Assembly: GCA_963813555.1 (NCBI GenBank)
Contig: CAWEZX010000003.1
Location: forward strand, 7,882-71,881
From: an uncultured Alphaproteobacteria bacterium
GTDB taxonomy: Bacteria > Pseudomonadota > Alphaproteobacteria > Rhizobiales > Beijerinckiaceae
DNA: 64,000 bases
Reading direction: 5' to 3'
The notes beneath the pieces were generated by a model. The model was not told the origin of the DNA and ran no database searches. It worked only from the letters and a program-made list of their open reading frames with translations. The translations under genes were made by a program, and so were the position numbers. Below, piece by piece: positions 20,456 to 23,049 of the stretch (the first letter of the stretch is position 1; the number at the start of each line of letters is the position of its first letter).

Positions 20456-20542
20456 TCGAGCCAGCGTCATACTGCCGGGTGTCCGGCGTTTGAAGTCCGG
20501 ATCACGTATCGGTTTCATCCGCGCGCGGGTGATTTCGTCACG

Positions 20543-20944
20543 GTGGTCGGCGTCCGGCGGCATGCAAGCGCCGATCACCTCATTGTGCGGCAGCCCGATC
20601 GCACCTTGGCGCTGCTGCCCGCCTGGATGACCAAGACGAATGGGTCTTCGTGCGAACTCGTTCAACATCCGCGGCTACCGCTCGAGAAGCTCGCTGAGCT
20701 CCACGCCCTGGTCGGCACACTCCTAATCTTGTTGCGAGGGGATTTGCCCTCGACGCGAGGAGCCGGAGATGACGAACGAGCGACGCAACCAAAGAGATTT
20801 ATTCGAACAAGCAACGATGCCTCCAGAGCTTCCGTCCCATCTCCGGACGGCGCTCACGCCATTGCTGCGGGTTCTACTGACGGAAGCGGCCGCTCGGGGA
20901 ATACAGGCCGAGATGGACGATCGGATCGGCGAGGAGGACGGTGA
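20543..20944 (+). CDS. Small accessory protein (DUF5372/Y4bD-like); true start probably not at 20543
   Basis: In-frame ITYRFHP lies upstream of the first GTG; then HLIVRQPD.TLALLPAWMT. Confidence 0.6.
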   Translation: MVGVRRHASADHLIVRQPDRTLALLPAWMTKTNGSSCELVQHPRLPLEKLAELHALVGTLLILLRGDLPSTRGAGDDERATQPKRFIRTSNDASRASVPSPDGAHAIAAGSTDGSGRSGNTGRDGRSDRRGGR

Positions 20945-20963
20945 TGACCAAGATCACGCCTGA
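20769..20963 (+). CDS. 64-aa hypothetical protein overlapping the recombinase start
   Basis: GGAG RBS before ATG; overlap typical of these elements. Confidence 0.5.
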   Translation: MTNERRNQRDLFEQATMPPELPSHLRTALTPLLRVLLTEAAARGIQAEMDDRIGEEDGDDQDHA

Positions 20964-23013
20964 GCACTTGGCCCGCAGCGCGTTCGTCTATGTGCGCCAG
21001 TCGACGACCGACCAGGTTCTCAACAATCACGAGAGCCGCCGGCGTCAGTATGCGCTCGCCGATCGAGCCCGCGCTCTTGGTTGGGGCGCCGTCGAAGTGA
21101 TCGACGATGATCTCGGTCGGTCCGGTTCCGGGATCGCGCGGCCGGGCTTCGAGAAGCTGCTGGCCGCGATCTGCGAGGGACGGGTGGGCGCTGTGGTCTC
21201 GATCGAGGCGTCGCGGCTCGCCCGTAACGGACGAGACTGGCACACTCTGCTGGAGTTCTGTGGCTTGGTCGATACGCTGATCATCGATGAGGACGGCATC
21301 TACGATTCCCGCCACCCGAACGATCGCCTTCTGCTTGGCATGAAGGGCACAATGAGCGAGATGGAACTCTCGCTCTTCCGTCAGCGCTCGCTCGAGGCCC
21401 TGAAGCAGAAGGCTCGCCGCGGCGAGCTTTTCCTCACCGTCGCGGTCGGGTTCCTCAAGGTGCGGCACGACCGGATCGAGAAGGACCCGGACCGGCGCGT
21501 CCAGGAAGCGATCGGACTCGTCTTCACCAAGTTCGCCGAGCTGCAGACGGTTCGGCAGGTTCATCTTTGGATGCGCCAGGAACGCGTGCCGCTGCCGGCA
21601 GTCGGATATGGCGCCGAGGGGCGAACCGTCACCTGGAAGCTGCCCGTCTACAACACGCTTCACCACATGCTGACGAACCCGATCTACGCCGGCGCCTATG
21701 CGTTCGGGCGCACCGGCAGCCGCATCACCATCGAATCCGGCCGCAAGCGGGTCGTGCGCGGCTTCCGCAAGGACCGCAGTGTCTGGGAAGCTTTGATCCT
21801 CGATCATCATGATGGATATATTGCGTGGCCCGAGTTTGAGAGGAATCAGCGCCTGATCAGCGACAACGCCAACGGTCAGAGTTTCATGAGCCGCGGCGCT
21901 GTGCGACGCGGAGAGGCCCTGCTTGCCGGTCTTCTTCGCTGCGGTCATTGCGGCCGAAAGCTCCACGTCGCCTACAGCGGCGAGAACGGGAGTTCGGGGC
22001 GCTACCATTGTCGCGGAGGCCATCTCAACCATGGCGGCGATCCATGCATATCGTTCGGCGGCATGCGGATCGATCGCGCGGTTGGCGCCGAGGTGATCGA
22101 GCGCCTTCAACCGCTCGGTGTCGAAGCAGCGATCAGCGCTGTGGAGGCGCGGCGAATCGAGAACACAGAGAAGCGGCGCCAGGTCGATCTTGCCCTTGAG
22201 CAAGCCCACTATGAGGCCGCCCTTGCGCGGCGTCAGTACGACGCCGTCGATCCCGACAACCGCCTCGTCGCAGCTGAACTCGAGCATCGATGGAATGAGC
22301 GCCTGGTCGCGGTGCATAGCCTTGAAGACGAACGCGACACGCTCGCAGCGGGTCCACAGTCTTCGCTCACCGTCACGGAACGGCAACGTTTGTTCGAACT
22401 CGGCGCCGATGTCGAGCGGGCCTGGGACAGCCCGGGTGCGACGCCCGCAATCCGCAAGCGGATTATCCGCACGTTGATCGAGGAGATTGTCGTTCGCGTC
22501 GAAGACGACGCGCTTACTCTTGTGATCCGATGGCAGGGCGGCGACCACACGCCCTTGCGCGTGCGCAAGAACCGCGTCGGCGAGCATCGGTGGGGTACGG
22601 ATGCCGATGTGATCGAACTCGTGTCCGTGCTGGCGCGACAGATGCCGGATCAGGCAATTGCAGCCGTCCTCAACAGAGCCGGCAAGACGACCGGCAAGGG
22701 CAACGGTTGGACCCGTTCACGCGTGTGCTTCCTGCGCAACCACCGTCATATCGCACCTTACCGGGAAGGCGAGCGCACGGAGCGAGGAGAGGTGACACTC
22801 GGTGAGGCCGCCGCGATCCTCAATGTAAGCGAAGCGACTGTCCGGCGCCTGATCCAAGAGGAGGTCCTTCCTGGCCATCAGCTTTGCAAAGGCGCGCCCT
22901 GGGTGATCAGGGCAAGCGACCTCGAAGACGAGAAGGTCAGGCACGCCGCCGATATCCGTCGTCATCGACGTCCGCCGTCTGACGATCCGCGTCAAAATAC
23001 ACTGGCTTTGTAG
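20941..23013 (+). CDS. Large serine recombinase with zinc ribbon and C-terminal HTH (690 aa)
   Basis: YVRQST catalytic Ser, EASRLARN, NPIYAG, CGHCG..C..C, terminal LGEAAAILNVSEATVRRLI. Confidence 0.93.
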   Translation: MMTKITPEHLARSAFVYVRQSTTDQVLNNHESRRRQYALADRARALGWGAVEVIDDDLGRSGSGIARPGFEKLLAAICEGRVGAVVSIEASRLARNGRDWHTLLEFCGLVDTLIIDEDGIYDSRHPNDRLLLGMKGTMSEMELSLFRQRSLEALKQKARRGELFLTVAVGFLKVRHDRIEKDPDRRVQEAIGLVFTKFAELQTVRQVHLWMRQERVPLPAVGYGAEGRTVTWKLPVYNTLHHMLTNPIYAGAYAFGRTGSRITIESGRKRVVRGFRKDRSVWEALILDHHDGYIAWPEFERNQRLISDNANGQSFMSRGAVRRGEALLAGLLRCGHCGRKLHVAYSGENGSSGRYHCRGGHLNHGGDPCISFGGMRIDRAVGAEVIERLQPLGVEAAISAVEARRIENTEKRRQVDLALEQAHYEAALARRQYDAVDPDNRLVAAELEHRWNERLVAVHSLEDERDTLAAGPQSSLTVTERQRLFELGADVERAWDSPGATPAIRKRIIRTLIEEIVVRVEDDALTLVIRWQGGDHTPLRVRKNRVGEHRWGTDADVIELVSVLARQMPDQAIAAVLNRAGKTTGKGNGWTRSRVCFLRNHRHIAPYREGERTERGEVTLGEAAAILNVSEATVRRLIQEEVLPGHQLCKGAPWVIRASDLEDEKVRHAADIRRHRRPPSDDPRQNTLAL

Positions 23014-23049
23014 CGTGATAGCGAGATGGGCATTATGAAGCGAGATCGG

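Follow-up and report, generated by a model that had tools for sequence, protein, structure and literature searches.

The window analysed here, a 64,000-nucleotide stretch of contig CAWEZX010000003.1 from an uncultured alphaproteobacterium of the Beijerinckiaceae, carries a small mobile element inserted into the istB gene of an insertion sequence (IS) of the IS21 type, and this element, its first open reading frame (ORF1) in particular, is the subject of the present analysis. The three genes of the element all lie on the same strand: ORF1, whose product contains a DUF5372-like domain, the short ORF2, and the gene of a large serine recombinase. The Walker-A codons of istB served as the target, and the element is antisense to istB. 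Its ends are homologous to the ends of more than 80 related copies. In a soil-metagenome contig with an uninterrupted istB homologue, the equivalent of position 20456 is joined directly to that of 23051, skipping 2,594 bp; this empty site sets the element boundaries at 20457-23050 and, showing no target duplication, marks the insertion as conservative. The boundaries given in a preliminary description, made from the letters of the window, were corrected accordingly; the frame and the length of the end-to-end join that it had proposed stood.

The ORF1 frame of the integrated element contains no ATG, GTG or TTG codon between the TAG at 20423 and the GTG at 20543. A start at this GTG would remove the family-invariant Y, F, H, P, R and G of the YxFHPRxG motif (Y26, F28, H29, P30, R31 and G33 of the joined protein, all upstream of the GTG), so that no functional domain would be possible. 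When positions 23026-23049 of the right end are joined to 20456 onward, an unbroken ORF of 170 amino acids results, which runs from the ATG at 23026 (or that at 23035) to the TGA at 20942-20944. The crossover falls between ORF1 codons 5 and 6, that is, the crossover of the joined attachment site attP lies inside the ORF, and the two states encode different products; codon 6 reads GCG or TCG, depending on which end contributes position 16, with length and frame unaffected. The three observations on which the preliminary description had built, namely a closed integrated frame lacking a start before the GTG, a protein-like segment upstream of this GTG and an open join of about 170 amino acids, were confirmed by the codon check, by a Pfam DUF5372 match that begins at about 20501, and by the joined frame itself. 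Coordinates of all features are collected in Table 1.

Table 1 Features of the element and of the interrupted istB gene (positions in the window)
Feature	Position	Strand	Description
Whole mobile element	20457..23050 (2,594 bp)	+	ORF1 body, ORF2, large serine recombinase gene, right-end piece with ORF1 start
ORF1 body	20457..20944	+	From first base past crossover to TGA 20942-20944
Right-end piece of ORF1	23026..23050	+	In-frame ATG 23026 and ATG 23035; inside P half-site; ends with attR dinucleotide GG
TAG closing the ORF1 frame when integrated	20423..20425	+	In flanking antisense-istB DNA
GTG, first canonical start of the integrated frame	20543..20545	+	Falls 14 residues into the domain and behind the YxFHPRxG motif
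DUF5372-like domain of ORF1	20501..20713	+	Predicted SH3/Tudor-like beta-barrel, includes invariant YxFHPRxG
ORF2, small conserved protein, 64 aa	20769..20963	+	Motif RxQRDLFE ... LLxxLLxEA; overlaps ORF1 tail (other frame) and recombinase start by 20 nt
Large serine recombinase, 690 aa	20941..23013	+	Resolvase, Recombinase and Zn-ribbon domains, C-terminal excisionase-type helix-turn-helix
P' half-site of attP (CGAGCCAGCGTCATACTGCCGGGTGTCCG)	20457..20485	+	Doubles as ORF1 codons 6-15; inverted repeat with right arm
P half-site	about 23023-23048	+	Contains ORF1 start codons
IS21 istB, interrupted, C-terminal fragment	20046..20456	-	Begins GTGKTHLA; Pfam IstB_IS21 E=2.9e-52, profile positions 101-235
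IS21 istB, interrupted, N-terminal fragment	23051..23374	-	Ends ...NIVLVGG; Pfam IstB_IS21 E=2e-16, profile positions 4-101

The chance of a single in-frame open join of such kind is about 15-20%, and the behaviour of related copies is what gives the join its weight. Plasmid relatives in Bradyrhizobium, Mesorhizobium and Sinorhizobium share about 75% nucleotide identity with the window element, and several of them sit at the same place in istB, adjoining istA. A scan of one genome per species yielded 80 loci with a recombinase identity of 67-96%, mostly from Alphaproteobacteria and soil metagenome-assembled genomes (MAGs), with up to eight copies per genome; nearly all copies are inserted in the P-loop codons (GxxxxGK[ST]) of IstB-like ATPases. 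Right arm (the ATG with the following 14 nt), core and left arm were joined by script in 67 copies; the join was open in 64 of them, giving ORFs of 150-174 amino acids that start with M[KNT][RQ]xR[SAT]xQRH[NT], and the remaining three contain stops much further downstream. Loss of the frame in homologues, which the preliminary description had named as one result that would tell against its reading, was thus not what the repeated join revealed. The same split was found in two distant lineages, in an Azospirillum plasmid copy with an IstB-like target (join MTRERARQRHTARYQGQDVTIHYPFHP) and in a Rhizobium tropici copy inserted in IS66 tnpC (LFAGS|EGGGRNW; join MSRQRRSRVHNAGFLAFESTVTYPFHP). The length from the ATG to the FHP motif changes by +6 nt in the Sinorhizobium lineage (L004) and by -3 nt in the metagenomic relative L202, both multiples of three. 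Retention of the open join over about 64 diverged copies and several lineages, together with these junction-region indels, exceeds chance, unlike a single join.

The start itself is less uniform than the frame. Among the 80 right arms, the equivalent of ATG 23035 is ATG in 75 and ATA in five. Another in-frame codon, 9 nt further upstream, reads GTG in 63, ATG in 16 and ATA in one, and four of the five arms with ATA in place of ATG 23035 retain it as a start. ORF1 ends on the start of the recombinase gene, with which its stop overlaps (GTGATG in the window; ATGA or TGATG in relatives), and on the circle the recombinase stop lies 12 nt before the first ORF1 start.

Near-identical copies of the window element with other flanks were also encountered in soil-metagenome contigs. 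One of them lies in the sense orientation of a Walker-A gene, with a left flank of ...GTCGGCAACGG and a right flank of (AG)CGGAACCGGCAAGACGCAC, from which it follows that both insertion orientations are used.

The domain that the split separates from its start is under clear selection. ORF1 matches Pfam PF17342 with E=2.3e-4 and 21.6 bits (under the gathering cut-off of 25) over profile positions 1-74 of 78; a PF17342 assignment is precomputed for many ORF1 homologues, one of which is named "DUF5372 family protein" by NCBI. Over 46 non-redundant joins, the entropy at the third codon positions of the domain is 1.33 as against 0.66 and 0.60 at the other two, a clear coding signature. In the AlphaFold2 (AF2) model, ORF1 forms a small beta-barrel (residues 22-63) followed by a long helix, with a disordered N-terminal arm and tail, and a Foldseek search of this model against the PDB gave just weak Tudor/SH3-like matches (E>0.1). 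ORF1 extends about 60 codons past its domain and overlaps ORF2 in another frame over about 57 codons (window 20700-20963), both frames being open in all relatives. When the ORF2 protein was held fixed and its synonymous codons were resampled, the ORF1 frame was expected to remain open with a mean probability of 0.14 per copy, and it was open in 51 of 51 diverged copies. Since the tail is kept open up to the recombinase start, ribosomes on ORF1 are apparently required to reach that start. ORF2, which is annotated in relatives by the NCBI pipeline PGAP, has no Pfam or NCBIfam match. In-frame DUF5372-ORF2 fusions occur among database proteins (P0003, P0004, P0021, P0072 and P0075, called "Y4bD/Y4pK family protein" by NCBI); they may have arisen by frameshift mutation or sequencing error, or may hint at programmed frameshifting.

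Joined ends were observed in natural molecules, on three contigs of public metagenomes. When the protein database was searched with the joined protein, most of the proteins obtained had N-termini translated from flanking DNA, and one, P0012 (MSTMKLPRSDQRHTAG...), has the junction form; a second search added P0039. Both had been read at full length by gene callers. The contig of P0012 (L085) has an exact 141-nt terminal repeat and closes to a 2,583-bp circle that is collinear end to end with the window element and keeps the ORF intact. P0039 lies on L207, a 2,719-nt contig of the Joint Genome Institute (JGI), whose ends overlap by 119 nt (118 identical) to give a 2,600-bp unit, again with an intact ORF. 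In addition, a right-arm motif scan of JGI metagenome contigs yielded, among 121 contigs, 116 right-end sites (attR) and one attP, that of L202, a divergent low-GC relative in which the recombinase 3' end is followed by the junction, ORF1 (MKRTRTTQQHNTHIRDLREICYSSHP..., intact), ORF2 and the recombinase 5' end. K-mers of this length across the junction can come only from reads that truly span it. The relatives L085, L207 and L202 therefore exist with their ends abutted, in a circle or a tandem; a free circle and a head-to-tail tandem are not separable from contigs. An exact-pattern scan for the attP junction found no match in JGI metagenome contigs or in viral contigs, and no back-joint of an L044-type relative was present in deep rhizosphere metagenome contigs, a weak negative as contigs and not reads were covered. 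Separately, L085 carries a 1-nt insertion at 1075-1105, near the recombinase 3' end and after its helix-turn-helix (HTH), which shortens the called protein and may be an assembly error or the mark of a defective circle.

The attachment site has the form expected for large serine recombinases, an imperfect palindrome spanning about 50 bp around a 2-bp crossover at its centre. Its half-site arms, GCATTATGA and TCATA(A/C)TGC, form an inverted repeat symmetric about positions 15-16. Among relatives, the right-end consensus is ...GAG[A/G]TG[A/G]GCAyTATGAAkC...TCG followed by the 2-bp core, and the left-end consensus is the core followed by CGAnnCAGCGTCAyAmTGCCGGGTGTCC. In the window, the core dinucleotides are GT at the left end (attL, 20455-20456) and GG at attR (23049-23050). 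Over loci L001-L084, the core dinucleotide follows the target codon, GT corresponding to Thr, GG to Pro, and CT or GA to Ser, and in 16 of 66 copies, the window copy included, the left junction differs from the right one in this dinucleotide. Serine integrases normally require matching cores. The unequal cores suggest either integration that tolerates mismatches, which replication resolves, or point changes that are frequent at precisely those two bases.

Whether the region around the crossover is translated was judged from 92 distinct left arms. Variation at Q8, R9 and H10 is almost wholly synonymous: codon 8 is CAG in 74 and CAA in eight, codon 9 is CGT in 61, CGA in 17, CGC in four, AGA in two and CGG in one, and codon 10 is CAT in 55 and CAC in 29; synonymous variation is seen also at E18 (GAG 58, GAA 25) and at V19, where all four GTN codons occur. 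A stop in codons 7-27 was present in just one left arm, and 60 have no ATG, GTG or TTG at all in codons 7-22. Because codons 8-10, which lie 5-13 nt from the crossover, vary synonymously, translation would cover them, and in that case initiation must lie beyond the junction. What lies upstream of the junction is variable antisense-target DNA in the integrated state and the conserved right arm in the joined one, and we argue from these codon patterns, and from the Ile-to-Val changes at codon 21 described below, that translation would begin upstream of the junction.

Several results weigh against this reading. The ATG sits in a palindromic half-site (GCATTATGA and TCATAATGC being inverted repeats around the core), so that conservation of the ATG, and of the constant 27 nt between it and the CAT codon, would be expected without any coding role and is not independent evidence. 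No period-3 pattern was found in ORF1 codons 1-15 over the 46 joins, and the invariant third positions of codons 11-15, among them GCC GGG TGT CCG, indicate a constraint at the DNA level. The N-terminal arm is among the parts predicted to be disordered. A Shine-Dalgarno (SD)-like sequence is good in most relatives (GAGGTGAGCATTATG) and weak in the window copy (GAGATGGGCATTATG), and the recombinase gene has a strong SD of its own, so translational coupling with ORF1 is not required. A simple consensus scan, a weak negative, found no sigma-70-like promoter at either window end or across the natural L085 junction, and RNA sequencing runs contained at most 8% of the words of the element. Finally, no back-joint of the window element was present in the soil-metagenome contig sets X1-X5 and X7, which do contain other insertions and an empty site; these were contigs and not reads, and the negative is a weak one.

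The palindrome and the absent codon signature are arguments for the alternative that the in-frame ATG is a by-product of attP symmetry and that ORF1 is made in the integrated state, from an AUC or AUU at Ile 21 or from GTG or TTG at codons 19-20, with the recombination state exerting no control. A GAGG does sit 5 nt before the conserved ATC/ATT of Ile 21 in most copies, and GTG or TTG at codons 19-20 is present in 27 of 92 copies, where PGAP places its starts (P0051 MILYPFHP, P0072 MRIFYPFHP), a further point in disfavour of initiation at the right end. The details of these candidate starts speak differently. Ile 21 is replaced by GTC or GTT in 17 of the 92 copies and by GAC in one, none of which can initiate, and for this reason a near-cognate start preceded by GAGGT was dismissed as a mechanism for the family at large; in 25 copies, the window included, the SD-like GAG reads GAA. 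Initiation at AUC and AUU in Escherichia coli reaches about 1% or less of AUG efficiency. The GTG and TTG at codons 19-20 have the appearance of normal Val and Leu codons, and most copies lack them, just as the 60 left arms counted above lack any canonical start in codons 7-22. Moreover, Q8, R9 (including changes from CGN to AGA), H10, E18 and V19 vary synonymously upstream of the candidate starts, and the indels upstream of the domain are multiples of three. We consider initiation in the integrated state unlikely on these grounds. A different idea, that the attP palindrome acts as an mRNA hairpin that buries the AUG, was not supported either, as the AUG is predicted to be unpaired, with z-scores near 0.

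The natural junctions could in principle come from chromosomal head-to-tail tandems, as with the (IS21)2 junctions of IS21, in which case ORF1 would be completed in arrays and not in an excised form. A tandem repeat and a circle do give an identical path in short-read assembly, and some genomes are multi-copy, one Roseovarius MAG holding eight. At the same time, no abutting second copy was seen in some 200 integrated copies that were inspected, L085 and L207 each close as a contig of exactly one unit, and the chemistry of large serine recombinases, in which attL and attR recombine to yield circles, argues in the same direction. Tandems as the source of the joined contigs are improbable, and they would change the place of ORF completion and leave the split itself untouched. 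Least credible of all is that ORF1 is dispensable here, a gene that matters just in some ancestral context and has been decapitated by integration, its open junction frame being passively inherited: all copies do descend from one ancestor, which makes the in-frame join effectively one event, and premature stops occur in the 3 of 67 copies noted above, but the purifying selection on the domain, its persistence over lineages of 33-96% identity and with different targets, the actively maintained tail and the near absence of stops in codons 7-27 all stand against it.

The reading that we favour, and regard as probably correct, is that the element is a minimal IS-like unit with circle-dependent assembly of ORF1, whose start and body are located at opposite ends. 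The split and its conservation, the joined DNA with an intact ORF, and the selection on the domain, on the crossover-adjacent codons and on the open tail are direct observations. The joined DNA was observed for three relatives; use of the right-end ATG in them and in the window element, like the coupling and the biological role considered below, is what we infer. The attachment site lies inside ORF1, with the ribosome-binding site (RBS) region and the start (ATG 23026 or 23035) in the right half-site, 14 nt before the 2-bp crossover, and codon 6 onward at the left end. In the integrated state, the body is cut from its start, with the frame entering antisense-istB DNA and meeting the TAG at 20423. 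Upon excision, the halves join in frame, the predicted product being a protein of 167-170 amino acids with a basic, disordered N-terminal arm, the DUF5372-like beta-barrel and an unstructured tail, and ORF1 would be translated just from the circle or from a tandem copy. Where its stop overlaps the recombinase start (UGAUG), termination-reinitiation may boost recombinase synthesis. Factors for re-insertion would in this way be made while the element is free and be shut off on landing, which is the logic of circle-junction promoters applied at a start codon.

The preliminary description had proposed a recombination-state switch in which an accessory or directionality factor is made at full length from the excised circle. 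The structural part of this proposal holds, namely an ORF split by the attachment site, no conserved start in the integrated state, in-frame joins and natural joined molecules; to assign ORF1 to the accessory or directionality factors is guesswork. That it is a classical excision factor is unlikely, since such a factor would be needed in the integrated state and not on the circle, and the architecture is easier to reconcile with a part in the integration step or in regulation.

A more elaborate form of the proposal can be offered tentatively, as a possibility that we do not rate highly. It would make the element a member of an undescribed IS-preying family with a three-link translational loop confined to the circle, running from the right-end start and RBS into ORF1, from the ORF1 stop to the recombinase start, and from the recombinase stop to the ORF1 start 12 nt further on, with this loop broken by integration and the recombinase tolerating mismatched cores. 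Tolerance of mismatched core dinucleotides would explain the use of many Walker-A variants in either orientation.

Known state-dependent systems offer several comparisons. Tn4451 and Tn4453 of Clostridium (Lyras and Rood 2000, as cited in PMC13023037) are likewise transposon-like, use a large serine recombinase (TnpX) and a circular intermediate, and gain a circle-specific expression signal from the joining of their ends. The differences are that in Tn4451 it is a promoter of tnpX that is assembled, with -35 and -10 boxes from opposite ends, whereas here the coding sequence is split into RBS and start versus body, and that the split gene here is not the recombinase gene but the upstream DUF5372-like ORF, whose stop overlaps the recombinase start. 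A promoter of the Tn4451/IS911 type, with -35 and -10 on opposite ends, was not detected in the present element by a simple consensus scan, which is a weak negative.

Promoters at circle or tandem junctions are known from IS911, IS2, IS30, IS21 tandems and IS110/IS1111 (PMC11187229), and integrative and conjugative elements (ICEs) have promoters active only after excision, such as Pcirc of ICEclc and P3'end of ICEKp1 (PMC13023037). In these systems, as in the reading favoured here, expression of mobility genes depends on the recombination state, being strong when the element is free and dismantled by insertion; they differ in that the control is transcriptional and the enzymes are of the DDE, DEDD or tyrosine type, whereas the present element would act on translation initiation and ORF integrity and uses a serine recombinase. 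In mycobacteriophage BPs and its relatives, integration-dependent immunity rests on an attP inside the repressor gene (PMC4557955, PMC3694055). There, too, attP lies inside a coding gene, and the free and integrated forms encode different products of the same gene. However, a tyrosine integrase splits the BPs repressor near its 3' end, a degradation tag is removed and the integrated form is the active one, whereas in this element the 5' end with the start is removed, the free form is the complete one, the enzyme is a serine recombinase and the protein is DUF5372-like.

Small proteins encoded beside large serine recombinases that could modulate them are a further point of comparison for ORF1. 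Serine integrases have recombination directionality factors such as phiC31 gp3, Bxb1 gp47 and SPbeta SprB. Unlike these, ORF1 is a protein for which neither sequence similarity nor significant fold similarity was found, and an excision factor is needed when the element is integrated, the opposite of what the architecture gives. Rhizobial symbiotic plasmids encode hypothetical proteins named Y4bD/Y4pK and DUF5372 (PF17342), of whose family ORF1 is probably a member; these names are annotation labels only, and the annotated starts of the proteins are internal (TTG or GTG, giving MILYPFHP or MRIFYPFHP) or lie in flanking DNA. In the literature searched (DUF5372, y4pK, serine recombinase with istB), no paper mentioning DUF5372 and none describing the element was found, so that besides the labels "Y4bD/Y4pK family" and "DUF5372 family" the element family is apparently undescribed. 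To our knowledge, a 5' split that removes the start codon has not been described in a serine-recombinase element. We read the circle-dependent gene assembly as real and as a new twist on the known state-dependent switches of mobile DNA.

The recombinase itself has the domain order of large serine recombinases (resolvase catalytic, recombinase, zinc-ribbon), with Pfam matches to PF00239 (E=1.5e-25, aa 14-162), PF07508 (E=8e-11) and PF13408 (E=3e-8) and a partial match to XisF. Membership in the IS607-family serine transposases was rejected, the NCBIfam IS607 model scoring 20.7 bits against a cut-off of 110. At aa 619-663 (22795-22930), the protein carries a C-terminal HTH (Pfam HTH_17, TIGR01764 "excise"), which is unusual for a large serine recombinase and could be a built-in directionality or DNA-bending module.

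The surroundings of the element are a nested "graveyard" of mobile DNA. The hosting IS21 copy has its end, at about 19891, within another serine recombinase gene (18373-19890, - strand), which is 5'-truncated, the IS21 insertion having taken away the first ~30 residues of its catalytic domain. The istA gene of this IS21 copy is in turn split by an IS110-family element (24334-25341, + strand). The other serine recombinase gene recurs in three partial diverged copies (19306-19891, 31977-32634 and 62691-63431) with 85-92% identity, in direct and inverted orientation, which indicates further copies of a second recombinase-bearing element in the window. In addition, a 42-nt unit is repeated three times in tandem at 44061-44189 with about 82% identity.

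A mobile element needs its recombinase expressed in the free state and silenced after insertion. Known solutions operate at the level of transcription, through junction promoters, or at a gene's 3' end, as in integration-dependent immunity, and a start codon supplied from the other end would be a third, translational one. The split start also accounts for the mis-starting or missing of this gene by annotation pipelines, and for DUF5372 and "Y4bD/Y4pK" proteins with random N-termini or internal starts. The unusually flexible target core of the recombinase could be of interest to serine-integrase engineers. Judged by its insertion sites, the family, widespread in soil and rhizobial Alphaproteobacteria, would be a parasite of transposons, which inactivates the helper ATPase of IS21-type elements on insertion and would restore this gene of its host IS on excision.

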